Positions 45,580 through 62,788 of a stretch of 64,000 bases of DNA are shown here, piece after piece. Position 1 is the stretch's first letter. Every line of letters begins with the position of its first letter. The notes beneath the pieces are model-generated. The model was not told where the DNA came from. It was given only the letters and a program-made list of their open reading frames with translations, and made no database searches. Source of the stretch: Anaerolineales bacterium (GTDB lineage Bacteria > Chloroflexota > Anaerolineae > Anaerolineales > UBA11858); assembly GCA_049644605.1 (NCBI GenBank), contig JBARSF010000017.1:7805-71804 (forward strand). Direction: 5' to 3'. The position numbers and the translations under genes were made by a program.

Positions 45580-45594
45580 GTCCTTAAAGAATTA

Positions 45595-45687
45595 TTAGCA
45601 CGGGGAGCCGAAGTTGAGGCTGAGAGGAAAACAATCGTTTTCGACCCGCGAACCTGATCCGGTTCATACCGGCGGAGGGATGCCTAG
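45595..45687 (+). promoter_or_regulatory. TPP (THI-box) riboswitch aptamer
   Basis: ggggagcc ... ggCTGAGAgg ... gACCCgcgAACCTGATCcGGtTcATaCCgGCGgAGGGA matches the conserved THI element. It lies upstream of thiamine genes. Confidence 0.85.
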
Positions 45688-45692
45688 ACAAA

Positions 45693-45717
45693 ACTCCGCC
45701 GACTGGCGGAGTTTTTT
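45693..45717 (+). terminator. Riboswitch expression-platform terminator
   Basis: actccgcc gact ggcggagt followed by TTTTTT. The aptamer segment ggcggag (45671-45677) duplicates the 3' arm and can form the alternative antiterminator with 45693-45700. Confidence 0.8.
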
Positions 45718-46539: not shown

Positions 46540-46540
46540 G

Positions 46541-47590
46541 ATGAAAAAATATCTTAACCTGGTGTTAGGTTTGTTCCTTATATATGCAGCGGCTTGTACT
46601 CCCCAACCCGGACTGGAAGAAATCCGCACTTTAACGGTGATGACCCACGACTCCTTTGCAGTCTCAGAAGGGGTGGTGGCATCCTTTGAAGAGTTGTACG
46701 GTGCCCAGGTCCAGTTCCTCGAAGTCGGGGATACAGGCACAGCGGTAAACAAAGCCGCGCTCTCCAAAGATAACCCTCTGGCTGACGTTTTTTACGGGGT
46801 GGACAATACCTTCCTGAGCCGGGCACTGGAGGAAGAGATTTTTGAACCCTATCGCTCTCCTCTGCTGGATGAGATCGACCCGGTCTTCCAGCTGGACAAA
46901 ACCTATCAAGCCCTGCCGGTGGACTTCGGGGACGTATGCCTGAATTACCAGAAATCGTATTTCACGGACCAGGGTCTGGCACCGCCAGATTCGCTGGAGG
47001 ATTTAGTAGATCCAGCCTATAAAGGGCTGCTGACAGTCCAGAATCCAGCCACCTCTTCCCCGGGTTTAGCATTTTTATTCACAACCATCGGCTATTTTGG
47101 AGAGGATAGTTACCTGGAATTCTGGCAGGCGCTGGTCGAGAACGAGGTAAACATCGTTAACGATTGGGAAACCGCCTATTATGCTGAATTCAGCCAGGCT
47201 GGCGGACCGGATCCAATTGTCGTTTCTTATGGATCCAGCCCACCTTTTGAGGTGCTGTTCGCGGAAGAACCGCTCGAAGATGCCCCAACCGCAGCGGTGA
47301 CTTCAGCGGGAAGCTGCTTCCGTCAGATTGAGTTTGTGGGTATCCTGAAAGGAACAGCCAATCGGGACCTGGCGGAAAAATGGGTAAACTTTATGCTCTC
47401 GCTTGAATTTCAGGAAGATATCCCATTAAATATGTATGTCTTCCCGGTCAATAGGAATGCGGAGCTGGAGGAAACTTTCCAGAAATTCCTGGAAATCCCG
47501 GAGATCACCGCGGAGGTCAGCCCGGAAATGATCTCTCAAAACCGGGAGAAGTGGATCAATGACTGGACTGAAGCGGTACTTCGTAAATAA
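46541..47590 (+). CDS. thiB: ABC transporter substrate-binding lipoprotein, thiamine (TbpA/ThiB)-like
   Basis: Lipobox LIYAAAC. Fe/thiamine-type SBP fold sequence (LTVMTHDSFAVS ..., NPATSSPGLAFL). Specificity is inferred from the TPP riboswitch context. Confidence 0.75.
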   Translation: MKKYLNLVLGLFLIYAAACTPQPGLEEIRTLTVMTHDSFAVSEGVVASFEELYGAQVQFLEVGDTGTAVNKAALSKDNPLADVFYGVDNTFLSRALEEEIFEPYRSPLLDEIDPVFQLDKTYQALPVDFGDVCLNYQKSYFTDQGLAPPDSLEDLVDPAYKGLLTVQNPATSSPGLAFLFTTIGYFGEDSYLEFWQALVENEVNIVNDWETAYYAEFSQAGGPDPIVVSYGSSPPFEVLFAEEPLEDAPTAAVTSAGSCFRQIEFVGILKGTANRDLAEKWVNFMLSLEFQEDIPLNMYVFPVNRNAELEETFQKFLEIPEITAEVSPEMISQNREKWINDWTEAVLRK

Positions 47591-47658
47591 ATATCTATGC
47601 CAAGGGACCTGGTTTCTTAAACTTACCTTTGTATTCATCAAATCACGTGGAGAGGATA

Positions 47659-47686
47659 AAAACGCTCCCGTCTCCGGGAGCGTTTA
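47659..47686 (+). promoter_or_regulatory. Intercistronic hairpin between the SBP and permease genes
   Basis: Perfect stem aacgctcccg / cgggagcgtt with loop tctc. It has only a weak T tract, so it is more likely an mRNA stabiliser or partial terminator. Confidence 0.45.
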
Positions 47687-47698
47687 GCAAAATATTAA

Positions 47699-49438
47699 AT
47701 GATGGAATCTCGCACACACCAGTCCCTCCGTCACACTTTCTCAAAGTCACCCAGTTTCCTGCTCTGGCTTCTCCCCCTGTTATTCCTGGGGATCTTTTAC
47801 TTTTACCCGCTGGCGGAGATCCTGGGGCTGAGCTTTTCCCGGGCGGAGGTCGGCATCCTGGCCGGTTTTGTGGAATCGGTGACCTCCCCCACCGTTCAAA
47901 AAGTCCTGGGATTTACTTTTAAACAAGCCCTTTTATCTACCCTGCTGACCCTGCTGGTGGGGCTGCCGGGTGCATACCTGTTTGGCCGGCATCAATTCAG
48001 GGGCAAAAAAGTCCTCCGGGCCCTGACCGGAGTCCCCTTTGTGATGCCCACCCTGGTGGTCGCGGCCGGGTTTTATGCCCTGGTGGGTCCCAATGGCTGG
48101 TTAAATCTCCTGTTAATGCGGGTTCTTAATCTTAATCTACCGCCAATCCGCTTTGTTAACAGCTTTGCTGCCATCCTCACCGCCCATGTTTTTTACAACA
48201 CGACCATCATTCTGCGGATTGTAGGAGACTACTGGAGCCGGTTGGATCCCCGCCTGGAGAGCGCAGCCCGGACCCTGGGCGCGAACCGGTGGAAAACCAT
48301 CCGGGAAATCACTCTGCCCCTGCTCCTGCCGGCTGTCGCAGCGGCTTCCCTGCTGGTGTTCATATTTGACTTCACTTCCTTTGGGGTGATCCTGGTGCTG
48401 GGGGGACCCCAATTTGCCACCCTGGAAGTGGAAATTTATTACCAGACCATCAGCCTGTTTAATCTGCCCCTGGCAGCCACACTTTCAGTCCTCCAGGTAG
48501 GTTTCACCTTGGTACTGACCGTGTTGTATACCCGGATCACCGCCGGCCTGAGCCGGCCGGTCAGTCTATCCTCCAGGAAAAGAACCCAGCGTCCCCTTCA
48601 GAGAGGAAAAACCAGGTTGGCCGCAGGATTATTTATCTCGCTCTTATTGGTTTTCTTAATCTCCCCCTTGGCTGCCCTGGCAGGGCATTCAATCACGCCC
48701 CTGGCCGGAAGTGGAGGGCAGGGAGAAGGGATCGGATCCATTTTTACGCTGTCTTTTTATCAGGCCCTAGCCCAAAATCCCCAGCAGTCGCTCTTTTATG
48801 TTCCCCCCACTACCGCCCTGGGTGTGTCCCTGGGGTATGGGTTGATTACGGTGGTTCTGGCTTTGGTCCTGGGGCTGCCGGCCGCCTGGGCCCTGGCAAA
48901 AAAGAATTTGACGTTTTTAGATCGGGTATTGGACCCTGTGTTAATGCTGCCGCTGGGTACCTCGGCTGTGACGCTGGGGTTGGGATTCCTGGTGGCGCTG
49001 GATCACCCTCCGTTAAACTTACGAACCTCCCCCCTGCTGGTACCCATCGCTCACACCCTGGTGGCCTTTCCGTTTGTGGTCCGCAGTTTAACCCCGGCTT
49101 TAAGCAGCATCCAACCGGAGCTGCGCCAGGCAGCATCCGTTCTGGGCGCCTCCCCGGTCAGGATCTTCAGGGAGATTGACCTGCCGCTGATTGGGCGGGC
49201 CCTGCTGGTAGCAGCCTCGTTTGCTTTCACAATCTCAATTGGTGAGTTTGGCGCCAGCTCGCTGATTGTCCGACCGGAATATCCCACCGTGCCGGTTGTG
49301 ATTTACCGGCTGCTCTCCCGACCTGGTGCTCTGAATTATGGTCAGGCCATGGCGTTAAGCACAATCCTGATGGGAGCGGTATTGGTTGGCATGTTAATAA
49401 TGGAACATTTCCGCCTGGGCGAAGTAGGAGAGTTTTAA
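47699..49438 (+). CDS. thiP: ABC transporter permease with duplicated transmembrane domain, ThiP-like
   Basis: 579 aa, about 12 TM segments, two EAA-like loops (ESAARTLGANRW, RQAASVLGASP). No ATPase gene follows. Confidence 0.78.
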   Translation: MMESRTHQSLRHTFSKSPSFLLWLLPLLFLGIFYFYPLAEILGLSFSRAEVGILAGFVESVTSPTVQKVLGFTFKQALLSTLLTLLVGLPGAYLFGRHQFRGKKVLRALTGVPFVMPTLVVAAGFYALVGPNGWLNLLLMRVLNLNLPPIRFVNSFAAILTAHVFYNTTIILRIVGDYWSRLDPRLESAARTLGANRWKTIREITLPLLLPAVAAASLLVFIFDFTSFGVILVLGGPQFATLEVEIYYQTISLFNLPLAATLSVLQVGFTLVLTVLYTRITAGLSRPVSLSSRKRTQRPLQRGKTRLAAGLFISLLLVFLISPLAALAGHSITPLAGSGGQGEGIGSIFTLSFYQALAQNPQQSLFYVPPTTALGVSLGYGLITVVLALVLGLPAAWALAKKNLTFLDRVLDPVLMLPLGTSAVTLGLGFLVALDHPPLNLRTSPLLVPIAHTLVAFPFVVRSLTPALSSIQPELRQAASVLGASPVRIFREIDLPLIGRALLVAASFAFTISIGEFGASSLIVRPEYPTVPVVIYRLLSRPGALNYGQAMALSTILMGAVLVGMLIMEHFRLGEVGEF

Positions 49439-49603: not shown

Positions 49604-49613
49604 GGGGGCGTGG

Positions 49614-49689
49614 TGTAGCGGTTAACATGCGGCCCTGTCAAGGCCGAGATCGCCGGTTCGAATCCGGTCGTCCCCGCCAGGTAAAGAGA
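49614..49689 (+). tRNA. tRNA-Asp(GUC): tRNA-Asp (anticodon GUC), CCA encoded
   Basis: Folded by hand. Acceptor GGGGGCG/CGTCCCC, D stem GTGT/ACAT, anticodon stem CGGCC/GGCCG with loop CTGTCAA, T arm GCCGG-TTCGAAT-CCGGT, discriminator G, CCA. Confidence 0.9.
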
Positions 49690-49697
49690 ACCACTCG

Positions 49698-49724
49698 AAA
49701 AGAGTGGTTCTTTTGGTTTAAGTC
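49698..49724 (+). terminator. tRNA terminator hairpin (copy 1 of 3)
   Basis: gaaccactc gaaaa gagtggttc TTTT. Near-identical copies occur at 58686-58712 and 60294-60320. Confidence 0.8.
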
Positions 49725-49810
49725 CACACTAAGGACTTTTTACAGATCATGCCGTGAGGGATATGTTACACTGTCATTGTAGGTAATAAATAAATCTGAC
49801 AAAGGGTAAT

Positions 49811-49888
49811 GATAAATACTTATCCTTCACTGAGTCAGAAAATAGCTTATTCATTTATCACGCGTTTGAAAGCTAATTAACGTTAGGC
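49811..49888 (+). other. attI-like recombination site A (two 20-22-nt direct repeats + core GTTAGGC)
   Basis: gataaatacttatccttcac (49811-49830) and gaaaatagcttattcatttatc (49838-49859), then a 22-nt spacer ending taattaac, then GTTAGGC (49882-49888). The same layout occurs at 60421-60506. Confidence 0.6.
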
Positions 49889-49915: not shown

Positions 49916-50353
49916 ATGAAAAGTGTTTATAACACTGGTGATCGTGCATCAAAATGGATCCGTTGGATTGCACGTATTTGGTCCTCTCCGATCATAATTT
50001 ACTCTCTGATAATGGTTGCCGGCTATGCATGGAACTGGGTGACAACCGGTGTAGCAGACCCCTATGCGGTGGAAGGATATCCCCCCACAGAAGCCCTGCC
50101 CCCCATCTTAATGTTTCTGAGTATCTTGGGATTAGGCATCGCCTGGCGTTGGGAGAGACTAGGGGGAGCGATTACCCTTGTTTTCCTATTAGCAACGGTT
50201 TCGTTGCTTCTTATTCAAAGCCCGATCACTGATGATTTCTATCACTCAGCGATCCCTTATTTTATGTCGGTGGTGATTGCCATCCCTGGAATATTGTTCT
50301 TGGTATGTTGGTGGCGATCGAGAACGGTGCCAATAGTTAAGAACGGTGCCTAA
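49916..50353 (+). CDS. Cassette 1: small integral membrane protein, unknown function
   Basis: 145 aa, 4 hydrophobic segments, AGGAGG RBS. The stop TAA lies inside the R'' core GCCTAAC. Confidence 0.75.
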   Translation: MKSVYNTGDRASKWIRWIARIWSSPIIIYSLIMVAGYAWNWVTTGVADPYAVEGYPPTEALPPILMFLSILGLGIAWRWERLGGAITLVFLLATVSLLLIQSPITDDFYHSAIPYFMSVVIAIPGILFLVCWWRSRTVPIVKNGA

Positions 50354-50422
50354 CCCCCGCTGCACCCGACCCTTCGATCCGCCCTGCGGGCTACTCAGGG
50401 CAGGTGAGCTCTTCCGTTATGC
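50348..50422 (+). repeat. attC1 (75 bp)
   Basis: GCCTAAC ccccgctgcaccc ... gccctg/cagggc stem ... ggtgagctcttcc GTTATGC. The R'' core is the reverse complement of GTTAGGC at 49882. Confidence 0.85.
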
Positions 50423-50473
50423 GCTATCTTTTTTTTGTATGCTAAAGTTCGATGTGTTTGAAGGAGGAAAGCA

Positions 50474-51157
50474 ATGGATTTGTCCTTACTAAAACCATAT
50501 CATGGTTACCAATCATCAATTATTCCATTCTCTAGTGGTTATTATCTCTATCTTGCAAGCTGGGACAGCACACCAACCAGCTTTTCTTCCTTCTCCAATA
50601 TTTGGGTGGTCACGCCAGAAGATAAAAGAATACTATTCGCAGATCCTCCAGCTTCGAGCGAAATTGTCTGTATTTATCATGATTTCCATGAAATCTATGG
50701 AGCGTCAATATCTCTTGATTGGGCTTTAGAAAATCATCTCCGGATTCAATGTGCGTCTCTTAATAATGACAACGAACTGGACGCTGAATTTTACTTACAG
50801 GAGACTCTATCGTCACGATTGCTTGTTTCCCTTGCCAGTAGTCCCCCCACACGGTTCATGGTTTCCAAACCCCTGGTAACAATATCAAACTTCTTGGTGA
50901 ACTTATTTGTAGCCAAGGGAGGCTCGACATTACTTGGAAAAACTGAAACCGGTCAGACTTTCTATAATGGCTCGACTGACCGATTATTTAAAGTCATTCA
51001 AGGTTCTGCAACCTTGAATGGCAAGGATTTGGGAGAGGTTTCAAGACCCACTTGGCCTGTAGAATTTGGTGATGCTATTCCATTTGTTCAGCCTGTGATT
51101 AAGTTGGGAACTCTCTACATACCTTACGAAGAAGAAATGCTGGAGAATAGCGCATAA
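50474..51157 (+). CDS. Cassette 2: hypothetical soluble protein (227 aa)
   Basis: GGAGG RBS. The stop TAA lies inside the R'' core GCATAAC. No family recognised. Confidence 0.75.
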   Translation: MDLSLLKPYHGYQSSIIPFSSGYYLYLASWDSTPTSFSSFSNIWVVTPEDKRILFADPPASSEIVCIYHDFHEIYGASISLDWALENHLRIQCASLNNDNELDAEFYLQETLSSRLLVSLASSPPTRFMVSKPLVTISNFLVNLFVAKGGSTLLGKTETGQTFYNGSTDRLFKVIQGSATLNGKDLGEVSRPTWPVEFGDAIPFVQPVIKLGTLYIPYEEEMLENSA

Positions 51158-51275
51158 CCCCCGCTCCACCCGACAGCCGGTAAAGACGGAAGACGGGGGA
51201 CGGAGGACAGGAAAGGCAAAGCCCGGCTGCGGGTGTCCTTCGTTAGCTCAGGATAATTAAGCTCATCCGTTGGGA
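51152..51275 (+). repeat. attC2 (124 bp, composite 3' end)
   Basis: GCATAAC ccccgctccacccgacagccgg ... cccggctgcgggtg ... GTTAGCT (51242) ... ataattaagctcatcc GTTGGGA (51269). The R'' core is the reverse complement of GTTATGC at 50416. Confidence 0.8.
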
Positions 51276-51288
51276 GGCAACAAAAACT

Positions 51289-52173
51289 ATGTTGATTGAT
51301 CCAAACGAAAATCGTAAAAACATCGAAAAATACTTGAGTAAGAATCTGGGATACCAGGTAGAGTTAGTTCAAGTAACGAAGTTAACGAAAGGCACGCGAG
51401 AAGCCCCCTGGAAATTAGTGATTGAAGCTAATGGAAAAGATGAATCATATGTGCTTCAGTTAGATCAAAAGAGCCTGGATTATGAATATCAAGTTCTAAA
51501 AGTAATGGAACGGATTCCGATTCCCACTCCAAAAGCATATGGACTGGAATTATCAGGGAAAGAAATTGGAGTTCCATGTTACTTTAGTGATTTCATTGAA
51601 GGCGAATCACTGCTAGAGCCAATGCTTGCAGGTGATTTTTGGGCTGAAGAGTTGTACATCAATACAGTCAGTGAATTACAATCAGTCACAGAAGAAGAGT
51701 TAGGAAGTTTTGCCAAGACATTAAAATATGAAACCGCTGAAGATGTGTTGGAAGAAGCATATTCTGACCTGAAAACCGCATCGCGTTCTTTAGTTGATGA
51801 TGCATACAGAGAACTGAAAAACACTATGCTGGAGTTACCCGCAGTACAGTTTAGCAATGGGGATTTATGGCTAGAGAACTTTATCGTGAAAGATAGGAAA
51901 TTAGCGGGTGTTATCGATTTTCCAAACGCAACGTTTAGCGATCCGATATATGAGTTCTTATTGACATTCTTTGTTGCACCAGAACTGCAAGGACGGGGAA
52001 TAGAAGAACGGTATTGTCGCCAAATGGGATATGACCCGTCTGCACTTCATTGGTATCACGGCCTAGAGTATTTTGACACATGGCGCTGGGTCTTAAAAAC
52101 TGGCGAAGGTTTTGTTCATCATACAGCTGAAAGTTTAGAGACAGATTTACGGAATTGGTTAGGTGGTAAATGA
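51289..52173 (+). CDS. Cassette 3: aminoglycoside/choline-kinase-type phosphotransferase (APH family) protein
   Basis: 294 aa with a Brenner-like motif NGDLWLENFIV and a downstream VIDFPNATFSDPIYEF (DFG-like) segment. Confidence 0.7.
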   Translation: MLIDPNENRKNIEKYLSKNLGYQVELVQVTKLTKGTREAPWKLVIEANGKDESYVLQLDQKSLDYEYQVLKVMERIPIPTPKAYGLELSGKEIGVPCYFSDFIEGESLLEPMLAGDFWAEELYINTVSELQSVTEEELGSFAKTLKYETAEDVLEEAYSDLKTASRSLVDDAYRELKNTMLELPAVQFSNGDLWLENFIVKDRKLAGVIDFPNATFSDPIYEFLLTFFVAPELQGRGIEERYCRQMGYDPSALHWYHGLEYFDTWRWVLKTGEGFVHHTAESLETDLRNWLGGK

Positions 52174-52193
52174 CTAAAGAAGCAGACGTTGCC

Positions 52194-52320
52194 GCACAAC
52201 CCAAGTTGCACCGGACTTGGCGATAGCCAAGGGGGTACGTGGCGCGATTTGCTGATTCTAGTTTTGGTTCAAGGATGGATCAGAGCAAATACCGCCAAGC
52301 CAGTGAACAAACCGTTATCT
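52194..52320 (+). repeat. attC3 (127 bp, long family)
   Basis: GCACAAC ccaagttgcaccgg ... gcgcgatttgct ... ccagtgaacaaacc GTTATCT. The R'' core matches the upstream core GTTGGGA at only 5 of 7 positions. Confidence 0.7.
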
Positions 52321-52338
52321 GGCAAAGGAAGCCCTCTC

Positions 52339-53493
52339 ATGAGACTTAATCCATTCAAACTTGAACGCTACTTCGCTAAGCATGAGTTCTCGACCCCGTA
52401 TTTGCTATGTTCCTCGGATTGCGAAAGCATAGAACTGCGGGACCTGCTGGCCCTCGAACCAGGGGCACCAGAGCGGCTATCCGCGCTTTGGCTCGGCTAC
52501 ACGGAGTCACTAGGCAATCCTGAGCTTCGGCATGCCATAACAACACTGTATGATCATATAGAGGCCAATCAGGTTCTTGTGCACGCAGGAGCCGAAGAGG
52601 CGATCTTCAATTTCATGAACGTCGTTCTCAGCCCTGACGATCACGTCATCGTGCATTCGCCCCACTACCAGTCTCTTGGAGAGGTGGCTCGGAGTATCGG
52701 TGCCAACGTATCCGAATGGCAAGGCAATCCGGATAATACGTGGGAACTCGACCTTAAATTTCTGGAAAGTTCTCTCACCGCTCGTACGAAGGTGGTAGTG
52801 GTCAACTTCCCACACAATCCAACCGGGTTTCTGCCTAGGTCCGAGTTCGTACGCGAGCTATCGGCGCTCTCCGATCAGCACGGTTTCATCGTCTTCTCTG
52901 ATGAGGTGTACCGCGGACTGGAACTCGATCCGTCCGACCATTTACCCGCCTTCACCGATCTAAACAATCGCGCTGTATCGCTTGGTGTGATGTCGAAGAC
53001 CTACGGCCTCGCCGGATTGCGAATCGGCTGGATCGCGACTCGTGACGACCGTCTCTTCCGCGAGCTTGCAGCGTTCAAGGACTACACGACCATCTGCAAC
53101 AGTGCTCCAAGTGAGTTCCTGGCGACTCTTGCATTGCGACATGCCGAAGTAATTGTCGAACGAAACCTGCAGATCATCCGCGACAACCTCGATCGCCTCG
53201 ACTCTTTCTTCGACTCTCATACGGATCTGTTCGGCTGGTATCGTCCCAAGGCTGGGTCTATAGCATTCCCCTCGCTGCTACGGGGAGCGGTTGATGAGTT
53301 CTGCGCCGATCTGGCTGAAAAGTCAGGAGTCCTACTGCTGCCGGGAACCCTCTATGGAGAAGAGTACAACTCGTTCCGCATCGGCTTCGGCCGCAAGAAC
53401 TTGCCCGAATCTCTTAAAAGGTTCGAGGCGTACCTGCGAAGACCAGATAACAAGGCTAATTCAGCCGACGTAAAAAGCCGCGCTGCTAATTAG
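52339..53493 (+). CDS. Cassette 4: class I/II PLP-dependent aminotransferase
   Basis: MRLNPFKLERYFAKHEF N-terminus and an SKTYGLAGLRIGW lysine motif. Start moved to 52339 (AAGGAAG upstream) because the track start at 52189 lies inside attC3. The C-terminal codons read into attC4. Confidence 0.8.
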   Translation: MRLNPFKLERYFAKHEFSTPYLLCSSDCESIELRDLLALEPGAPERLSALWLGYTESLGNPELRHAITTLYDHIEANQVLVHAGAEEAIFNFMNVVLSPDDHVIVHSPHYQSLGEVARSIGANVSEWQGNPDNTWELDLKFLESSLTARTKVVVVNFPHNPTGFLPRSEFVRELSALSDQHGFIVFSDEVYRGLELDPSDHLPAFTDLNNRAVSLGVMSKTYGLAGLRIGWIATRDDRLFRELAAFKDYTTICNSAPSEFLATLALRHAEVIVERNLQIIRDNLDRLDSFFDSHTDLFGWYRPKAGSIAFPSLLRGAVDEFCADLAEKSGVLLLPGTLYGEEYNSFRIGFGRKNLPESLKRFEAYLRRPDNKANSADVKSRAAN

Positions 53494-53504
53494 CAGCGTT
53501 AGGC
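53445..53504 (+). repeat. attC4 (60 bp)
   Basis: AGATAAC aaggctaattcagcc ... gctgctaattagcagc GTTAGGC. The R'' core is the exact reverse complement of GTTATCT at 52314. Confidence 0.8.
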
Positions 53505-53510
53505 TGTTGA

Positions 53511-54350
53511 ATGAGTAAAGTGAAAATGATTAGTTTGGAAGAGATACGAATGATACGAATCGATGCTGGACCTTTCACTATGGGAACCAGCGAACGAGAG
53601 ATCGATATAATAGAAAGGCAAGATGATCTCGCCAAGAAATGGAGAATCAAAGGCAACTTCAGTAGAGAACAGCCACAATGCACTATTTCGCTGAAACCAT
53701 ACTTGATATCAAAGTATCCCGTAACAGTTGGGGAATACAGAAAATTCCTAAAAGCAAAAGGATATCAAACACGGCAGTATTGGACAGAAACGGGATGGTT
53801 ATGGGTGCAATCAAATAATAGAAAGCAACCTGATTATTGGAATGAACAAAAATGGACCTGGAATGATAAGCTCCCAGTGATAGGAGTAAGTTGGTATGAA
53901 GCAATGGCATATTGTCACTGGATATGTGAAAGTACAGGAAAGAAAGTGCGCCTGCCAACGGAAGCAGAGTGGGAAAAGGCAGCACGTGGAAGGGATAAGA
54001 GGATATATCCTTGGGGGAATGAGTTTGATGTAAATATGTGTAACACAAGATTGAGTGGACTGAATAAAACAATACCAGTTGATGAAGCTAGCCCAAGTTC
54101 CGAAAGCCCATATAAATGTTGTGACATGGCAGGGAACGCGTCTGAGTGGACGATAAGCGAATTCAAGCCATATCCTTACAAGGGAGAAAATGGAAGAAAC
54201 GAAATTGAAGGAGAGAAATTGCGGGTTGTTCGGGGAGGTTCTTGGTTCAAACCACAAATAAGAGCCAGAGTATCGGCTCGTGGGATGAACGATCCATTCT
54301 TTACAGATAACGATGTAGGATTTAGATTTGTGTGTGAAGCATATGGATAG
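53511..54350 (+). CDS. Cassette 5: formylglycine-generating enzyme (SUMF1/FGE-sulfatase) domain protein
   Basis: [35 protein letters not shown] and RVVRGGSW motifs. Start (53511 or 53526) is uncertain. Confidence 0.8.
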
Positions 54351-54357
54351 AAGCACA

Positions 54358-54481
54358 GCCTAACCACCGCTCCACCCGACAGCCAGGGGCGGGACCGGGG
54401 ACGAGGACGGAAGACCGGGAATAATAATCTGGCTGCGGGTGCCCTTCGTAAGCTCAGCATAATTAAGCTTATGCGTTAGGT
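54358..54481 (+). repeat. attC5 (124 bp, composite 3' end)
   Basis: GCCTAAC caccgctccacccgacagcc ... ggctgcgggtg ... GTAAGCT ... ataattaagcttatgc GTTAGGT. The R'' core is the reverse complement of GTTAGGC at 53498. Confidence 0.8.
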
Positions 54482-54503
54482 CGCAGTTTGTCAGGGAGTG
54501 ACT

Positions 54504-55169
54504 ATGATACGGGCTATTGTAGTGACAGTGGCATTATTCCTCCTCCTAGGAGGGTGCTTATTCGGCGGCGCCGGCACTATGTCATGGCCTATAGCTTGGG
54601 CTGTTCTGGGTATTTATTCCGCCTCCAAGGCGGCTACCTTCGCCTTCGTCGACCCAGCACTCATCAAGGAACGGGCGGCACCCGGGCAGGGCGTGGACCG
54701 CGTTGATAAGGTGCTCGCGACCTTGGGATATCTGGGCCTGTACCCTGGTTCATTTGTGGCCGCTGGGCTTGATGCGGTTCGCTTCGGCCCCTCCATCCCC
54801 ATCCCCCAATTTATCAAGCTGACGGCGCTCCTCATCTTTGCTCTCGGCTATGGCATAGCATTCTGGGCAGTACTTTGCAACCCGTTCTTCTCCACCTTTG
54901 TGCGAATTCAGGATGATCGTGACCACTCGGTCGTCTCATCAGGCGCGTATGCTCTGGTTCGGCATCCTGGCTATGCGGGCGTTCTTCTCGCCCACTTGGC
55001 CCTTCCGCTCGCGCTTGGATCTATCTGGTCTTTGGTACCAGCGGCTGTGGGCACGATCTTGTTCGTGGCGCGAACAGCACGCGAAGATCAAACGCTTCGA
55101 GACCATCTTGTCGGGTACCGTGAGTATCAAACCCGGGTTCGTTGGCGACTTTTACCAGGAGTTTGGTAG
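54504..55169 (+). CDS. Cassette 6: isoprenylcysteine carboxyl methyltransferase (ICMT/PEMT superfamily) membrane protein
   Basis: GAYALVRHPGYAG ... REDQTL ... YREYQTRVRWRLLPGVW. Start set to the ATG at 54504 (GGGAG 5 nt upstream); the track start is a GTG at 54498. Confidence 0.8.
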   Translation: MIRAIVVTVALFLLLGGCLFGGAGTMSWPIAWAVLGIYSASKAATFAFVDPALIKERAAPGQGVDRVDKVLATLGYLGLYPGSFVAAGLDAVRFGPSIPIPQFIKLTALLIFALGYGIAFWAVLCNPFFSTFVRIQDDRDHSVVSSGAYALVRHPGYAGVLLAHLALPLALGSIWSLVPAAVGTILFVARTAREDQTLRDHLVGYREYQTRVRWRLLPGVW

Positions 55170-55202
55170 CCGGATGCCTGCGGGTGAGCTCTTTCGTTGG
55201 GC
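55170..55202 (+). repeat. attC6 remnant (3' half only)
   Basis: ccggatgcctgcgggtgagctctttc GTTGGGC retains the L'/R' half. The expected R'' core (ACCTAAC) and L'' box are absent. Confidence 0.6.
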
Positions 55203-55232
55203 GCGTCTTGGAAACGGTCACGGGAGGTTACC

Positions 55233-55904
55233 ATGAAACATGCCGTTGAATTATTTTTTAGGATTGCCCTTTTGGTGCTCACCTTGTTTATTTGGCTGTG
55301 GGCGCTCAATCAACCGAGTTCAAATACAATGAATCTGATCCTCATTGCAGGAAGTGTATTGTTGGTATTCCCAACCGTTTGGCTCGGGAGGATGATCCTC
55401 GACAGACAGCCAACAACGAGCCGCGCCGCCTGGATAACCATCTTTGTCCATTATGCCGTGTTGATCATATTTGGCATTGCCATCATTCAAGCAGTAACCA
55501 CTCATCAAGATTGGTCTGGCTGGGTACTCCCAGTACCAACTGAAATCGGCTTGTTGTTAGTCATTATTACCGGGGCAGCCGCACTGTTCTCCGTGATAAA
55601 CCTTGCCTTAAAAGGGCTCGGTGCACCTTTTGCGATTGCGCTCAGCAAGAAATTGGCGGTAGATTGGATGTATGCCTGGACGCGTAATCCCATGGTGCTT
55701 GCAACTCTGGCCCTTCTGCTGTCATTGGGAATCTGGTTTCAGTCAGTGCTGTTTGTGCTCTGGGTACTCATCCTGTTTACACCGGCATTGCTTGTCTTCG
55801 TGAAAGTGTATGAAGAACGAGAACTAGAGTTACGCTTTGGGGCATCCTATCTGGAGTACAAATCCAGAACGCCGATGTTGTTTCCAAGAAAGCCAAGAGG
55901 TTAA
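55233..55904 (+). CDS. Cassette 7: second ICMT/PEMT-superfamily membrane methyltransferase
   Basis: MYAWTRNPMVLA ... YEERELELRFGASYLEYKSRTPMLFP. Start set to the ATG at 55233 (GGGAGG upstream). Confidence 0.78.
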   Translation: MKHAVELFFRIALLVLTLFIWLWALNQPSSNTMNLILIAGSVLLVFPTVWLGRMILDRQPTTSRAAWITIFVHYAVLIIFGIAIIQAVTTHQDWSGWVLPVPTEIGLLLVIITGAAALFSVINLALKGLGAPFAIALSKKLAVDWMYAWTRNPMVLATLALLLSLGIWFQSVLFVLWVLILFTPALLVFVKVYEERELELRFGASYLEYKSRTPMLFPRKPRG

Positions 55905-55914
55905 ACCATGTGCC

Positions 55915-56041
55915 GCCCAACACCGGCTCCAGCGGACAGCGGCTCTGCCGCTCGAAAACCGGTGCGATTTGCCAGAAATAGTCCATAATTGAGAAAGAGT
56001 CTCGCCAGCTCCGCGGCTGCGGCTGAGCTCATCCGTTGGGC
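55915..56041 (+). repeat. attC7 (127 bp, long family)
   Basis: GCCCAAC accggctccagcgg ... ggtgcgatttgcc ... ggctgagctcatcc GTTGGGC. The R'' core is the reverse complement of GTTGGGC at 55196. Confidence 0.85.
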
Positions 56042-56084
56042 GGCAATAAATGACTCGCTGGAATATTAGACAAAGGAAGAACAC

Positions 56085-56465: not shown

Positions 56466-56594
56466 ATACAATAGAGAAGACCAAAAAAAGACTCTAATTT
56501 CGTAGTTGTTTTAAGCAGCCTTCCGGAAGATCCTTATTTCACTTGTTTCTCTCAAGATTTGATTTTGGAAAATAAGAAGTCAAGGGAAAAAGCC

Positions 56595-56651
56595 GCCCAA
56601 CCCCCCAGGCACATGACCGTGCTGCGCTGGGGAGGAAGCGGCGCGTTTTGC
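56595..56651 (+). repeat. attC8 (57 bp, non-canonical R' core)
   Basis: GCCCAAC cccccagg ... ctgggg aggaagcggcgc GTTTTGC. gccGCCCAAC is the reverse complement of GTTGGGCggc at 56035. Confidence 0.7.
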
Positions 56652-57041
56652 AGCATTTGGCTCTGGCTAAACCAGCTTCAGGAACAAAAACGCACGGCAA
56701 ATGATGTCATCGTTAGCCTGGCAAAACTTGCAGATTGAATAATCATTTGGCTGCCTGGACCCGGAATAAGGATTCTGTGAAAATTAATTATGTGGTTTCC
56801 GGAACGATTCGTGCTGGTTATTTTATGATTTATGCTGATCGAGATAAAAATATGGTGGCGTGAATATTCATAAGAAACAATCATTGAATCACCCTTAATA
56901 AATCTCGCTTTTTTAGCTTGATCCCATTTCGGGTAGAAGATGGTGCTGATTATCAGGTTTAAATCCCTTATTCTTGCTATAATCTAGTAGTTACTCAAAA
57001 CCAGATTCTGGATATGTGTTGGACCTCTAGGAGTAATGATT

Positions 57042-58523
57042 ATGGCGCATGATGTGTTTATCAGCTACTCAACCAAAGACAAGACTGTCGCTGATACGAT
57101 TGCAGCCTCACTGGAGGGAAAACAAATCCGCTGCTGGTATGCGCCCAGAGACATCAAAGCCGGGGCCGATTGGGGGGAAGAGATCGCCCAGGCCATTAAC
57201 GCCAGCACGATTTTTTTGCTGATCTTCTCCAGCAGCGCCAACCAGTCTCAACGGGTGCTGGATGAGCTGAATCTGGCCATAACAAAAGAAGCGGTTATTC
57301 TGCCCTTCCGGATCGAAAAGTTGGATCCCAGCGGCGCCATGCAGCTGCATCTTTCTTCCAGGCATTGGTTGGATGCATTCCTACCCTCCTGGGAAAAACA
57401 CATTGATAACCTTGTCAACAGCGTTTTCTCCAATCTGGAAACCGGCGAAAGCACCGCAGCAGTTGATTATGCCAGATCTTTTGATCAAACCTCAAAACCG
57501 AAAAAAAGAAAACTCTGGCTGTTTGGGGCTGTTGGGACCGTTGTTATTGCCGGCTTGGGGGCAATTTTTGGCCTCCCAAAGCTTTTTGGCCCACCTGATA
57601 TCATCCCAACAGAATTAGCACCGACTGTAACTACTCATTCGACGGCGATTATTCCCACCGACACCAGCGTTCCCACACCCATTCTCCCGACCCTGGGCAG
57701 CGCAGAAGCTCCCCTGATCTGGATGTACGTTCCCAGGGATGATATCGACTTTAACGAGGTCAGTACCACAGTTGATGAAATCGTCAAGGATTTTCAAGAA
57801 ATAAATCCGAATTTATCCCTGAAGATTATCCCCGCTACCAATGAAATCACAATAATTGAAGCGCTCTGTGCCGGGGAAGCGCACATCGGATCACTTAATG
57901 CCTTCACATTCATGGCCGCGTCAAGCCGGGACTGTGCTGAAGCCAAATTAATCTGGAGTGCGTACGGCGATATCAACGTTGGAGGTATGATCGTTACTAA
58001 CGCAGACAGTGGGATTACTGATATTTCAGCATTAGAAGGTCAACCGCTTTGCATCCCTAACTATACTAGTACTTCCGGATGGGTATTGCCCTCCCTCGAG
58101 ATTCAAGCATCCATAGAGAGGGATCCTGATTCCTTTTTTAGTGAGATTATCGAAAAAAATGGACATGATAAAGTTATTTGGGAAGTTTATAACGGGAATT
58201 GCATTGCGGGAACAGCCTTTTATGATGCTCGGTTAAATTATTCAGATATCCCTGATATCAATGACCGTGTTGTTATACTCTCTACTACCACCTCTGTCCC
58301 CCTATCAAACTTCAGTTTCAGTAAAATCATTCCACCCGAACTCTCCCAAAAGCTGATTGCCTTTTTCCTCAATTCTGCGGAATTAGATAATTTATCAATC
58401 ATTTGTGGGTATTCCCATCATACAAATCCCATCAAATTAATTGAGATCAATGATTATTACTATAACGAGATCTGGGATTTGTTCCAGCGGGCCGGGGAAA
58501 ACCCGGAAGATTATTTACGGTAG
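57042..58523 (+). CDS. TIR domain - single TM helix - PhnD-like periplasmic solute-binding domain fusion protein
   Basis: N-terminus DVFISYSTKDK ... CWYAPRDI ... IFLLIFS ... VLDELN (TIR_2-like, conserved Glu). KPKKRK then TM LWLFGAVGTVVIAGLGAIFGL. C-terminus ALCAGEAHIGSLNAF, GMIVTNADSGITDISALEGQPLCIPNYTSTSGW (phosphonate-bd-like). AGGAG lies 8 nt before the ATG at 57042. Confidence 0.8.
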   Translation: MAHDVFISYSTKDKTVADTIAASLEGKQIRCWYAPRDIKAGADWGEEIAQAINASTIFLLIFSSSANQSQRVLDELNLAITKEAVILPFRIEKLDPSGAMQLHLSSRHWLDAFLPSWEKHIDNLVNSVFSNLETGESTAAVDYARSFDQTSKPKKRKLWLFGAVGTVVIAGLGAIFGLPKLFGPPDIIPTELAPTVTTHSTAIIPTDTSVPTPILPTLGSAEAPLIWMYVPRDDIDFNEVSTTVDEIVKDFQEINPNLSLKIIPATNEITIIEALCAGEAHIGSLNAFTFMAASSRDCAEAKLIWSAYGDINVGGMIVTNADSGITDISALEGQPLCIPNYTSTSGWVLPSLEIQASIERDPDSFFSEIIEKNGHDKVIWEVYNGNCIAGTAFYDARLNYSDIPDINDRVVILSTTTSVPLSNFSFSKIIPPELSQKLIAFFLNSAELDNLSIICGYSHHTNPIKLIEINDYYYNEIWDLFQRAGENPEDYLR

Positions 58524-58632
58524 ATAACTCTTACCCCTGTGGAATAAAGCGGGAGAATTCAAGCGAAACATCATTCTTATGATCGGCGGGAGCAGAACTG
58601 ATTAAGGTCTGGGAACCACTGCTATAAAATAT

Positions 58633-58677
58633 GGGGCAATAGCCGAAATCGCCGGTTCGAATCCAGTCGTCCCCTCA
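58633..58677 (+). pseudogene. Decayed tRNA-Asp copy (3' half retained, D and anticodon arms missing)
   Basis: agccgaaatcgccggttcgaatccagtcgtcccctca (58641-58677) matches tRNA positions 49652-49689 with about five differences. It is preceded by ggggc, resembling the 5' acceptor strand. Confidence 0.75.
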
Positions 58678-58685
58678 GTGAAAAA

Positions 58686-58712
58686 GGACCACTCGAGAGA
58701 GGGGTTCTTTTT
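58686..58712 (+). terminator. Terminator hairpin copy 2 of 3
   Basis: ggaccactc gaga gaggggttc TTTTT, a degenerate copy of 49698-49724 in the same position relative to the tRNA remnant. Confidence 0.65.
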
Positions 58713-58875
58713 GTGTTAAAGGAGGTATAATGGCAATTCTCCCTAGTAGAATTAGCTGCCCTGCTGAGACCATACCATCACTCAGGGCAGATGTTTGTAA
58801 TCCAAAATCCATAAATGGGGGGATCATCATTGAAGTTATCAGAGAAATTCAATTAAGCAGTCCTTTAGGAGCTCT

Positions 58876-60069
58876 ATGATGGCTAAACAATATTTGAAGT
58901 TTAAGCTTTGGATAATCCCAGTCCTGCTGATTTGGATGGCGATCAGCACATCTTGCGAGCGTGTGGAGGGGGGAGAGGACCAAGAAACCCCGGCATTGCC
59001 GCAGGCGACTGTCCCGGTAGCAACCCTGGAGGATAATCAATCATCCAGCGAGGATGGAGAACCTGAAGATTTATCGACCCCTCAGTCGCCAGAACACCTG
59101 GTTTCCGGGCTTGTCCTTGGAAGTATGAGCGAAACATTCTATGTGGATCTGACCGGCCAGGTTGTACTCCTGGTGGATCAAACTCTTGCGCAGCTCAACG
59201 CTGACCATGATCTAGTTCTTTTTGCCCGTGAGGATCCAGCCAATTATAAAAACGATATCTGGATTTTGGATCTAGAGAGCGGGGAAGAACAAAACTTGAC
59301 CCAAACTCCAGACCGGGATGAAATCTTCCCTCAGTGGTGGCCGGCCCATCCCGAGATGGCTTTTTTTGTATCGGGGGAAGAAACCGGGATGATGAACAGC
59401 GAACAGCCGACAATCGTCAACCTGGATGGTTCTGGATATCAAGTCCTTGATGAGAATCAAGGGGGACCCAATACTTTGGCGTCCGATGGAACAATGATTG
59501 CTTACGGGGGATTTGATCAAGTTGGGGTTATCTATCATTGGGATGGTAAATTTGAAGACTTCTACCCCGAGGACTATGGCTTAAATGTAGAGAAAATATT
59601 CCAACCCGCATTCTCGCCGGACGGGCGCTTCCTGGCCTGGAAAGTGGCCGGCGACTTAAATGGGGATGGCAGCTACGCAATTGGCCTGGCAATCTTTGAT
59701 CTCCAGGAACGAACAGCGATCCTGACCCATGTCTACATCGTGCAGGGAGGAGGTATGGTCCCTCATTATGTCGCCTGGAGCCCGGATGGGAGTTGGATTG
59801 CTTATGTCACTTTCGGCGAGGGACCCGCTGTTGAGCGAGAACCCAATCTGTGGATTCTGCGCCCGGACGGCAGCCAGGAAATGTTTGTTGACATTGGCCT
59901 TGACCCTACCTGGAGCCCCGATGGCTCAAGTCTGGCGTACATTCGCACGACCATGGAAGGTGAGCAAGGACTGCAAATCATGGATCTCAAGAGCTTAAGC
60001 ATCACGCCAATTGATGATCTGTCGTTCCCGGGTGCACTGAATTTCATCATCGACTGGATTCAGCCTTAA
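58876..60069 (+). CDS. Lipoprotein with TolB-like PD40 beta-propeller repeats
   Basis: Signal peptide with lipobox-like ISTSC. Repeated FSPDGRFLAW, WSPDGSWIAY and WSPDGSSLAY motifs. Confidence 0.78.
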   Translation: MMAKQYLKFKLWIIPVLLIWMAISTSCERVEGGEDQETPALPQATVPVATLEDNQSSSEDGEPEDLSTPQSPEHLVSGLVLGSMSETFYVDLTGQVVLLVDQTLAQLNADHDLVLFAREDPANYKNDIWILDLESGEEQNLTQTPDRDEIFPQWWPAHPEMAFFVSGEETGMMNSEQPTIVNLDGSGYQVLDENQGGPNTLASDGTMIAYGGFDQVGVIYHWDGKFEDFYPEDYGLNVEKIFQPAFSPDGRFLAWKVAGDLNGDGSYAIGLAIFDLQERTAILTHVYIVQGGGMVPHYVAWSPDGSWIAYVTFGEGPAVEREPNLWILRPDGSQEMFVDIGLDPTWSPDGSSLAYIRTTMEGEQGLQIMDLKSLSITPIDDLSFPGALNFIIDWIQP

Positions 60070-60255: not shown

Positions 60256-60293
60256 AGCCAGTCTCTAAGAGATAAGTTTCATTTAATTAAAAA

Positions 60294-60320
60294 GAACCAC
60301 TCGTGAGAGTGGTTCTTTTT
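60294..60320 (+). terminator. Terminator hairpin copy 3 of 3
   Basis: gaaccactc gtga gagtggttc TTTTT, with stems identical to 49698-49720. Confidence 0.75.
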
Positions 60321-60420
60321 GTGTTTAAGGACAACCCCACGCCAGGTTTTGTCAGCGGCGTAACAACTATGCTACACTGTCATTAGAGGGAGTAGATTTC
60401 GCCGGGTACGATGGATGCCA

Positions 60421-60506
60421 GATAATAACTTATTCATTTAGCAGGAGACATACTGGATAACTACTTATTCAGTTATCCCGCAGTTACAAGATAATTAACG
60501 TTAGGC
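60421..60506 (+). other. attI-like recombination site C
   Basis: gataataacttattcatttagc (60421-60442) and gataactacttattcagttatc (60456-60477), then a 22-nt spacer ending ataattaac, then GTTAGGC (60500-60506). Confidence 0.6.
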
Positions 60507-61899: not shown

Positions 61900-62000
61900 G
61901 CCTAACCCCCGCTCCACCCGACAGCCGGTTAAGGACGGACGACCGCGGACGGAGGACCGGAAAGGTAAAGCCCGGCTGCAGGTGAGCTATTCCGTTATGC
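61900..62000 (+). repeat. attC2' (101 bp)
   Basis: GCCTAAC ccccgctccacccgacagccgg ... cccggctgcaggtgagctattcc GTTATGC. The R'' core is the reverse complement of GTTAGGC at 61570. Confidence 0.85.
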
Positions 62001-62004
62001 GTCA

Positions 62005-62610
62005 TTGATCAATACAGGAGTTAAACAATTTCTTTGGAGATTTCTGGTGGAATCAATACTTAGATTAAAGAATCGGAAGATTCGTTTCTTATGGTCCTTT
62101 CTATTCCTTTTTATTACTTCTAGTATTGCTGCATTTCTTGTCTACTATGGAATCATATTGTTGAAAATTGGAAATAATTATGATGCCCCAATCAGGATTT
62201 CTGATGGATATCACGGAGGTTATCTATCGTTGATCTCTGAACACCCTTTCCCTTTTCTTATGTCTATTTCACTAATTCTCGCAATTTCAGGAACCCTATG
62301 GGTTGTTAGTATACTACCTAAATTTCAACGCTTCCAATTCTTACAGATTTTACTAATCCCGTGGATTTCACTAATTATCGCGAGTCCCATCTGGGGTTTG
62401 ATATGGTCAATTTATCGCTGGCCCCCTCAAGGATTTTCAGATTCCTCCGTAATGTGGATGTACTATCGGCATGACTTATTATTCGGGCTTAGATTAGGTT
62501 GGTTATCAGCTCTCCTGTCATTTCCAATTAACATTATCAGTTACGTTTTCGCAGTGGGATTGATCTACCTTAGTTCAAGAATATTCATGATGAAAAACCT
62601 AGACATTTAA
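62005..62610 (+). CDS. Cassette 3': AT-rich integral membrane protein, unknown function
   Basis: About 5 TM segments. The track start is a TTG at 62005; a GTG at 62047 with GGAGA 6-7 nt upstream is an alternative. Confidence 0.65.
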   Translation: MINTGVKQFLWRFLVESILRLKNRKIRFLWSFLFLFITSSIAAFLVYYGIILLKIGNNYDAPIRISDGYHGGYLSLISEHPFPFLMSISLILAISGTLWVVSILPKFQRFQFLQILLIPWISLIIASPIWGLIWSIYRWPPQGFSDSSVMWMYYRHDLLFGLRLGWLSALLSFPINIISYVFAVGLIYLSSRIFMMKNLDI

Positions 62611-62624
62611 CCAGTATTTTATCC

Positions 62625-62749
62625 GCATAACCTCCGCTCCACCTGCGCGCCGGGCAAGCCGGGCGCCCGATCGCTTCTCCCCTTACCAGTTTTTTAATCT
62701 ATAATCAACATTAACTGGCCCCGGCGCCAGGTGAGCTCATCCGTTGGGC
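62625..62749 (+). repeat. attC3' (125 bp)
   Basis: GCATAAC ctccgctccacc ... ggcgccaggtgagctcatcc GTTGGGC. The R'' core is the reverse complement of GTTATGC at 61994. Confidence 0.85.
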
Positions 62750-62788
62750 GGACGTGGCAATCAGGCTGTCACACCAGAGAGAACATCA

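Follow-up and report, generated by a model that had tools for sequence, protein, structure and literature searches.

A candidate receptor-like TIR protein with a PhnD/PtxB-class ectodomain in an Anaerolineales bacterium, and its family with interchangeable ectodomains

To our knowledge, the bacterial TIR enzymes described to date act as immune sensors or effectors in the cytoplasm. The gene described here lies in a stretch of 64,000 nucleotides from an Anaerolineales bacterium (GenBank assembly GCA_049644605.1, contig JBARSF010000017.1, positions 7,805 to 71,804 of the forward strand), the whole of which was analysed and is called the window in the following. It encodes an N-terminal TIR domain, a single transmembrane (TM) helix and a C-terminal domain of the PhnD/PtxB class of solute-binding proteins (SBPs). 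Thoeris ThsB, AbTir, SPARTA TIR-APAZ, TIR-STING and Cat1 share with the window protein the common TIR fold and a Glu at the catalytic position. In contrast to these bacterial enzymes, the TIR domain of the window protein is predicted to be membrane-anchored, with a putative sensor facing outside. In a systematic survey of TIR signalling, which covers 29 putative Thoeris types, there is no mention of RyR effectors or of TIR proteins with an ectodomain. By membership tests the window gene is not a Thoeris system. The ThsB_TIR model was missed (13.3 bits, cutoff 21.2), the PADLOC ThsB models gave E values of only 0.011-0.036, and a ThsA-type adjacent effector was not found in the window. The logic of ThsB signalling to ThsA is nevertheless paralleled, as relatives in the family adjoin proteins with RyR, a domain type that binds cyclic ADP-ribose (cADPR) (PMC13232231).

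Animal Toll-like receptors (TLRs) and IL-1 receptors form a second point of comparison, and the TIR domains of TLRs and of TRR-2 were among the best profile matches of the window TIR domain. The order of domains is inverted here, with the TIR domain at the N-terminus and a type-II orientation. The ectodomain of the animal receptors consists of leucine-rich repeats or immunoglobulin domains, whereas an SBP fold is combined here with a TIR domain that has enzyme-type features. The resemblance is almost certainly an architectural analogy that arose by convergence, and not membership. Among the SBPs, AioX and ArrX signal to histidine kinases instead of feeding transporters. PhnD, PtxB, HtxB, AioX and ArrX have the same two-lobe fold as the window ectodomain, in which the STS-H motif of PtxB is kept. 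Unlike in these proteins, the window domain is covalently joined to a TIR domain by way of a TM helix, and ATP-binding cassette (ABC) or histidine-kinase partner genes were not found nearby. Finally, phage RyR domains (PF02026) either cleave 2'/3'-cADPR or bind it with nM affinity, and the ligand residues of RyDEP are H75, W78, H100 and D117 (2026 preprint, PMC13232231). The RyR domains found next to members of the present family are homologous to the phage domains and keep the EH..W, H and D/N positions, but they are part of cellular 2TM-TrkA_N-RyR and NTPase-RyR-RyR proteins and not of small phage anti-defence proteins.

The N-terminal domain was assigned to Pfam TIR_2 (PF13676) with an E value of 4.9e-24 and 85.6 bits against a cutoff of 28, over model positions 1-121 of 122. 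Residue numbers of the window protein are counted throughout from the ATG at position 57036. A profile of the TIR region matched TIR-STING, TRR-2, TLRs, RPV1/RUN1 and Cat1, and Glu77 was aligned with the alpha-C helix Glu of TIR-STING (6wt6). This residue was invariant in all 44 orthologues compared, and its conservation was at least 90% among 99-150 cluster representatives of the wider family. An AlphaFold2 (AF2) model of the TIR domain alone had a predicted local distance difference test (pLDDT) value of 79. In Foldseek searches it matched SPARTA TIR-APAZ (TMq 0.78, root-mean-square deviation about 2 Å) and AbTir-3AD (TMt 0.82); further matches were SARM1, RUN1, the MAL filament and Hydra TRR-2. 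As modelled, the fold is closest to the oligomerisation-activated NADase TIR domains of SPARTA, AbTir, SARM1 and RUN1. Among the 44 orthologues, mean pairwise identity fell from 68% in the TIR domain to 45% in the ectodomain and 24% in the linker and TM region (residues 136-225), and the TIR domain is thus the most constrained part of the PhnD-type orthologues. Invariant blocks were found in the BB-loop region (CWxAPRD) and in the alpha-D/beta-E region (GAMxLHLSxxHWLDA), which we take to be the surfaces that build the active head-to-tail assemblies in AbTir, SARM1 and MAL. The segment DPSGAMQLHLSSRHWLDAFL (residues 97-116, nucleotides 57324-57383) is near-invariant family-wide. Its pLDDT was below 50 in the full-length monomer model and 63-83 in the TIR-only model, which would fit a surface that is ordered only within an oligomer. 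The TIR domain is probably enzymatically active.

Hydropathy analysis gave a Kyte-Doolittle maximum (19 residues) of 2.17 at residues 160-180, and no other segment exceeded 1.5. A helix was placed at residues 160-178 in the full-length AF2 model. The hydrophobic segment is located 160 residues from the N-terminus and is therefore read as an anchor and not as a cleaved signal peptide. Six Lys or Arg residues are present among the 15 residues on its N-terminal side and none on its C-terminal side. A hydrophobic helix within residues 130-240 was also present in 116 of the 120 best matches. In those 116 relatives the mean number of Lys and Arg was 5.07 before the helix and 1.08 after it, and 114 of them had more before than after. 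Four invariant Cys residues (C278, C300, C339 and C389) are confined to the C-terminal domain, in agreement with an oxidising, extracytoplasmic location. The charge bias and the four Cys residues together place the TIR domain inside and the binding domain outside, and the window protein is very probably a type-II (N-in, C-out) single-pass membrane protein. The linker that follows the helix had pLDDT values below 50 at residues 184-210 of the full-length model.

The C-terminal domain matched Pfam Phosphonate-bd (PF12974) over residues 262-448, with an E value of 1.1e-26 and 94.1 bits against a cutoff of 27. The mean pLDDT of the full-length AF2 model (44 orthologues) was 80.8, with values above 90 over most of the ectodomain. 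When the ectodomain was compared with the PDB by Foldseek, the best match was PtxB in its apo (open) form (5o2k, E value 2.8e-19, TM-score 0.80), followed by other PtxB structures, HtxB, PhnD, the sensor SBPs ArrX and AioX, XAC2383 and GpxB. Matches to PDB entries by sequence were GpxB (9lf9) and PtxB (5o2j). The STS-H ligand motif of PtxB has been defined previously, as have its capping Tyr and its ligand-contacting hinge Tyr, which determine phosphite specificity (PMC5700983). Of the equivalents of the motif in the window protein, S345, S347 and H377 are individually present in 42 of the 44 orthologues, and T346 varies. Besides the four Cys residues, W307, D397 and R399 are invariant ectodomain residues of the family's own. 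A homology search with the ectodomain alone returned nine matches, all of them fragments on short contigs. On the strength of the conserved motif, there is about an even chance that the ectodomain binds a small oxyanion ligand.

The initial annotation had described a TIR-like N-terminal domain, a KPKKRK cluster followed by one hydrophobic helix at about residues 160-180, a Pro/Thr linker and a C-terminal PhnD-like domain, with the TIR domain in the cytoplasm and the binding domain outside. Every element was found again at its position, the Glu codon included. The TIR assignment was confirmed by a TIR_2 score well above cutoff, the fold match and the retained Glu; the helix, by the single internal anchor segment with its strong positive-inside bias; the linker, by its composition, low pLDDT and poor conservation. 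The orientation agrees with the Lys and Arg bias here and in 114 of 116 relatives and with the Cys distribution, and the C-terminal domain was borne out by the Pfam match, the PtxB fold and the retained S-T-S...H motif.

A full-length search identified about 50 orthologues with the same TIR and Phosphonate-bd architecture, at 43-90% identity. In a larger set of matches from the same search, the same N-terminal 160-190 residues (50-72% identical) were joined to unrelated C-terminal domains. Residues 3-187 of the window protein were 55-72% identical to members with other ectodomains; one of these, P0053, carries a BNR/sortilin ectodomain and is 72% identical over the TIR domain and TM helix (TIR-TM). 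The survey of the domain combination and its neighbourhoods, which the initial annotation had suggested, was run and gave a large family with repeated linkage to RyR-domain genes. An exhaustive HMMER search with residues 1-190 resulted in 1,711 clusters at 50% identity (E<=1e-30). Among 99 cluster representatives, C-terminal domains were assigned by Pfam as FGE-sulfatase in nine, Phosphonate-bd in eight, SBP_bac_5 in seven, PD40 in six, Bmp/PnrA in four, Lectin_C in three, Peripla_BP_6 in two and Sortilin/BNR in one. Four SBP classes and several binding folds of other kinds are thus carried on one TIR-TM chassis. The features that define the family, a TIR domain of this subfamily, one TM helix with a Lys/Arg-rich N-terminal flank and an extracytoplasmic C-terminal domain, were all found in the window protein.

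In contigs representing one genome per species, the close relatives were overwhelmingly from Anaerolineales and other Chloroflexota, and more distant TIR-TM relatives were found in Clostridia, Coriobacteriia and Desulfobacterota. Several genomes contained at least two TIR-TM copies, with four in one cluster at locus L001 and two in tandem at L009, and paralogues occurred in pairs in the Clostridia loci. One orthologue (L013, positions 8001-9294), from the metagenome-assembled genome MFD03899.bin.2.29 labelled 'uncultured beta proteobacterium', is split into two overlapping open reading frames (ORFs) of 136 and 304 residues, the result either of a frameshift in a pseudogene or of an error in the long-read assembly. 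Another gene neighbourhood is conserved at L003, L007 and L008 (orthologues P0023 and P0022), where an aldo-keto reductase gene and small hypothetical ORFs were observed upstream and a gene for a 303-residue radical SAM protein downstream. No description of TIR-TM-SBP proteins or of a linkage between TIR and RyR was found in a literature search, most subscription journals being outside it. The TIR-TM-ectodomain architecture was not described in the conflict-system papers of the Aravind group or in a survey of TIR diversity. The family is an uncharacterised and very large bacterial family.

RyR-domain genes were found repeatedly next to genes of this family. In orthologues P0020 and P0021 a TrkA_N and RyR protein of about 605 residues is encoded 19-34 bp upstream. 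When species-representative loci, mostly from Chloroflexota, were analysed by tblastn and a RyR hidden Markov model, 11 of 29 had a RyR-domain ORF within 8 kb of the TIR-TM gene (L013, L014, L018, L020, L022, L026, L027, L028, L035, L036 and L039), in most cases as its immediate neighbour. Among loci from other phyla the number was three of 49. Two arrangements recurred. In the first, a TrkA_N-RyR gene is followed by a co-directional TIR gene with a gap of 19-35 bp. The second is divergent: genes for an nSTAND-like NTPase with two RyR domains (about 890 residues), a 186-residue ORF and a TrkA_N-RyR protein face the TIR gene, the spacing being about 170-240 bp where the pairs are closest and reaching about 730 bp at most. 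At L013 the TrkA_N-RyR gene is located about 1 kb away on the other strand. The linkage is independent of ectodomain type, as the TIR protein of L014 carries SBP_bac_5. A reverse search was performed with a profile of the 11 TrkA_N-RyR proteins against metagenome contigs, and TIR ORFs of the subfamily were accepted at E<1e-8. Such an ORF was present in the available flanks of 21 of 79 TrkA_N-RyR loci, directly adjacent in about 17, and in about 11 of some 24 loci with at least 3 kb available on both sides.

A recurrent module composed of a RyR-TrkA_N protein of about 600 residues, an nSTAND-like RyR-RyR NTPase and at least one TIR-TM-ectodomain gene was observed, mostly in Chloroflexota genomes and metagenome contigs (L001, L009, L013, L014, L018, L020, L022, L026-L028, L035, L036, L039 and L091-L160). 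The Chloroflexota RyR domains had 227 phage homologues. They share an invariant EH..W, a His about 25 residues further on and, at a further distance of about 17-19 residues, a position that is acidic or an amide. By its spacing this last position may be the counterpart of the catalytic Asp of phage RyDEP. In alignment A6 its column, which follows a conserved 'EK' near the C-terminus, holds Asp in four and Asn in seven of the 11 TrkA_N-RyR proteins. The Asn in seven of 11 hints that most of these RyR domains may bind their ligand and not cleave it. The TrkA_N-RyR partner was also considered as a recognisable K+ channel; this was rejected, as Pfam Ion_trans_2 was undetected even at E<=5, and the partner is therefore described only as two N-terminal hydrophobic helices and a TrkA_N domain. 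A literature search, again with most subscription journals outside it, found no paper combining "RyR domain" with "TrkA".

The domain identities, the signals of topology, the conservation, the modular family, the transporter genes not found nearby and the gene linkage in relatives are best explained by a receptor-like TIR enzyme that produces an ADP-ribose (ADPR)-type messenger read by RyR-domain effectors, and we assign this reading a probability of roughly 0.5. The catalysis, the ligand, the coupling across the membrane and the RyR read-out in the source genome are what we infer beyond those observations. The external flytrap would bind a small molecule bearing an oxyanion, with the S-x-S...H core kept and specificity residues unlike those of phosphite and phosphonate binders. 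Closure of the domain, or ligand-dependent clustering, would alter the packing of the cytoplasmic TIR domains, and the assembled TIR domains would cleave or cyclise nicotinamide adenine dinucleotide (NAD+). The product, probably a cADPR-type nucleotide, would then be read by the RyR proteins, namely the TrkA_N-RyR membrane protein and the STAND-like RyR-RyR NTPase. In the source genome such receivers would need to be encoded outside the window, and it is suggested only tentatively that the RyR read-out operates there. The initial annotation had proposed a one-polypeptide transmembrane sensor coupling an extracellular ligand to TIR activity. That proposal is supported by the occurrence of unrelated ectodomains on the TIR-TM chassis, by the ABC genes not being found beside the gene and by the RyR-linked relatives.

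The coordinates of the features are collected in Table 1. An alternative in-frame ATG at 57036 would give an ORF of 495 residues (57036..58523, + strand). The start at 57042 (Met3) is likelier because of the 8-nt spacing from the AGGAG sequence, because MxHDVF is the N-terminus of all orthologues and because the NCBI protein P0001, 100% identical to the window protein, has a length of 493 residues. A scan for promoters and terminators gave no signal above shuffle expectation, and a clear compositional break was not found in the GC profile. A second TIR domain or a second SBP was not found in the 64-kb window by tblastn and hmmsearch.

Table 1. Features of the TIR-TM-PhnD-like gene and of the DNA following it. 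Positions are those of the window; residues are counted from the ATG at 57036.
Feature	Position	Strand	Details and basis
Shine-Dalgarno-like AGGAG	57029..57033	+	8 nt to ATG 57042, 2 nt to ATG 57036
TIR-TM-PhnD-like coding sequence	57042..58523	+	493 residues from ATG 57042, stop codon included; ORF list
TIR domain, predicted cytoplasmic	57054..57413 (residues 7-126)	+	Pfam TIR_2
Glu77 codon, catalytic-position Glu	57264..57266	+	Motif SQRVLDEL; orthologue alignment
KPKKRK basic cluster, predicted cytoplasmic flank of helix	57495..57512 (residues 154-159)	+	Sequence
Single predicted transmembrane helix LWLFGAVGTVVIAGLGAIFGL	57513..57575 (residues 160-180)	+	Hydropathy
Pro/Thr-rich linker, predicted extracytoplasmic	57591..57710 (residues 186-225)	+	Sequence; poorly conserved
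PhnD/PtxB-class (Venus-flytrap) domain, predicted extracytoplasmic	57711..58520 (residues 226-495)	+	Pfam, Foldseek
S345-T346-S347, equivalent to PtxB S124-T125-S126 oxyanion motif	58068..58076	+	Gap-free HMMER alignment to Ps_PtxB
His377, equivalent to ligand His of PtxB (H155) and PhnD (H157)	58164..58166	+	Alignment to Ps_PtxB
tRNA-Asp 3'-end copy, 33 nt	58642..58674	+	94% identical to 49643-49675; 119 bp past stop
Hairpin and T-run AAAAAGGACCACTCGAGAGAGGGGTTCTTTTT, likely terminator shared with tRNA-Asp	58681..58712	+	Repeat search, alignment A4

The upstream neighbours of the TIR gene are cassette-type genes, encoding DUF7670, APH, an aminotransferase, FGE-sulfatase, two PEMT-like proteins and a 126-residue ORF; a PD40 protein and an Rce1-like protease are encoded downstream. 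The stand-alone FGE-sulfatase gene (53511-54350) and the PD40 beta-propeller gene (58876-60069) flank the TIR gene in the same island, and the PD40 product has an N-terminal hydrophobic or lipoprotein-like leader. Both domains are also among the commonest ectodomains on the TIR-TM chassis in paralogues elsewhere. ABC transporter genes (PhnC/PhnE or other) were not found beside the TIR gene in the window, nor beside its orthologues in five neighbourhoods read gene by gene. An ABC permease (47699-49438) belongs to an operon located behind a thiamine pyrophosphate (TPP) riboswitch, on the opposite side of tRNA-Asp. The riboswitch (45591-45697, 64 bits) is followed by three genes (45886-49438), the last of which encodes a 579-residue double BPD_transp_1 permease. 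This operon is probably a thiamine ABC importer and is unconnected with the TIR gene.

The only intact tRNA gene of the window is tRNA-Asp (49604-49679). With the copy of its 3' end past the stop codon, the TIR gene closes a segment of about 9 kb between tRNA-Asp 3'-end repeats. From their sequence, these repeats look like att-type boundaries of successive insertions at tRNA-Asp, and the location is variable and island-like. Similar hairpins were observed at 49683-49725, 58681-58723 and 60289-60331, the third copy following the PD40 gene. No integrase was found among the genes annotated in the window. Repeat pairs resembling attC come after one ORF after another between about 50.3 and 56.05 kb, and once more from 61.9 kb onwards, and two arrays of ORFs with attC-like repeats were delimited at 50348-56047 and 61900-62751 (GCCTAACCCCCGCTCCACCCGACAGCC ... 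GGCTGCGGGTGAGCTC.TCCGTTRGGCG). A leader at 49762-49888, after the tRNA, is repeated at 60368-60506 before the second array; the two copies are 84% similar and end in TTAACGTTAGGC. To judge from the repeats, the arrays are like those of integron cassettes but lack a visible integrase (CALIN-like), and the folding of one attC-like repeat was better than that of shuffles (z -2.07).

The attC-like repeat families reach as far as about 56047, and the last clear attC is separated from the TIR gene by the 126-residue ORF and 570-576 bp of non-coding DNA. A candidate at 56590-56722 folded like shuffles (z -0.9), and an attC-like hairpin was not found in 58524-58660 after the gene (z -0.47); identity of the TIR gene as an integron cassette was rejected. 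The earlier placement of the gene at the distal end of a cassette array was inaccurate, the tRNA-Asp 3' remnant and hairpin following it instead, and the upstream non-coding stretch measured 570-576 bp after the 126-residue ORF and not 380 bp as first given. The accompanying statement that no recognisable attC follows the gene was correct.

Several observations weigh against a receptor-like enzyme with RyR read-out. A RyR-domain ORF was not found in the 64-kb window by tblastn and hmmsearch, and RyR genes were not found in the orthologue neighbourhoods L003/L012, L005, L007 and L011. The equivalence of the RyR positions to H75, W78, H100 and D117 of RyDEP was assigned by spacing alone. In the ectodomain, the position of the capping Tyr is occupied by Asn425 (Asn in 43 of 44 family members), and that of the hinge Tyr by Val315 (Tyr in 22, Phe in nine, Trp in five and Val in four of the 44 members); with these replacements a phosph(on)ate-type ligand is not assured. 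The score against NCBIfam TIGR01098, the phosphate/phosphite/phosphonate SBP subfamily, was 102.1 and did not reach the cutoff of 112.05, and the PhnD equivalog TIGR03431 gave 66.1 against 261.1; with the latter score far under cutoff, identity of the domain as PhnD was rejected. Closure of the flytrap would have to be signalled through one helix and a disordered linker of 40 residues, and clustering is an assumption. The variable, island-like location would also fit a role in defence.

Such a role is the core of the alternative that survives best, a stand-alone abortive-infection or stress effector, which we nevertheless regard as unlikely. Its ectodomain, perhaps a decoy or surface sensor, would sense envelope perturbation or phage adsorption, and clustering of the TIR domains would deplete NAD+ and stop growth without a dedicated messenger or receiver. 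The position of the gene between tRNA-Asp 3'-end repeats in a variable region, next to integron-type cassettes, speaks for this, as do the partner gene not found in the window and a TIR fold nearest to the NAD+-depleting SPARTA and SARM1. PADLOC models containing TIR domains were matched weakly, but a full PADLOC system match was not obtained, the partial TIR matches being at 1e-8 or weaker. The diversity of ectodomains is like that of a diversifying recognition repertoire, yet many of them are nutrient-type binding proteins that keep small-molecule motifs, and conservation among orthologues of 41-90% identity extends over the full length, unlike in rapidly diversifying receptors. The recurrent RyR linkage also speaks for the use of a diffusible ADPR-type signal by the family (PMC13232231).

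The TIR domain could also serve, like those of animal TLR, MyD88 and MAL, as a homotypic, non-enzymatic scaffold, which would cluster ectodomains or recruit partners and assemble with TIR-TM paralogues or cytoplasmic TIR proteins without NAD+ chemistry. This is suggested by profile matches to TLR1, TLR2, TLR6, MAL, MyD88 and Hydra TRR-2 and the fold match to the MAL filament, by the tandem and paired TIR-TM paralogues (four in L001, two in L009, pairs in Clostridia loci), and by the predicted interface regions (BB-loop and DE region) being the most conserved blocks. A pure scaffold is distinctly improbable: it would have no need of the Glu, which none of the 44 orthologues lacks and which reaches at least 90% conservation across the wider family; enzyme TIR domains gave the best structural matches, and the RyR domains of the neighbouring genes are from a family that binds nucleotides. 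A membrane-tethered SBP that supplies an ABC importer with a phosph(on)ate-type nutrient in a bacterium lacking a periplasm, the TIR domain being accessory, would agree with the NCBI/JGI label of the gene and its orthologues (phosphate/phosphite/phosphonate ABC transporter binding protein), with the PhnD-family fold and STS-H motif and with the fact that TM-anchored SBPs are common in monoderm bacteria, but it is very improbable given that ABC permease or ATPase genes were not found beside the gene or in the five orthologue neighbourhoods, that the only nearby ABC operon follows the TPP riboswitch on the other side of tRNA-Asp, that both NCBIfam cutoffs were missed, that the same chassis carries PD40, FGE-sulfatase, lectin and BNR domains, which cannot feed transporters, and that the TIR domain is more conserved than the binding domain.

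The reading preferred here, a receptor-like TIR enzyme, can be extended to an outside-in TIR second-messenger pathway in many Chloroflexota and some other bacteria, in which exchangeable external ligand-binding domains would control a membrane-anchored TIR cyclase and its cADPR-type product would gate RyR effectors, namely the TrkA_N-RyR membrane protein and the STAND-like RyR-RyR NTPase, although at this breadth it is doubtful. If true, a membrane TIR domain controlled from outside would be a new input mode for NAD+-derived signalling, and the pathway would serve environmental or cell-cell sensing and not phage defence only. Characterisation of one member would annotate thousands of proteins that are now labelled "ABC transporter substrate-binding protein". 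Because of the linkage to cellular RyR proteins, it can be tested directly if RyR domains natively receive TIR products. The linkage also bears on the evolution of cADPR-RyR signalling and of the receptor-TIR architecture; if the proposed pathway is true, it would be a prokaryotic counterpart of both the Toll-like receptor architecture and the animal axis of cADPR and the ryanodine receptor.

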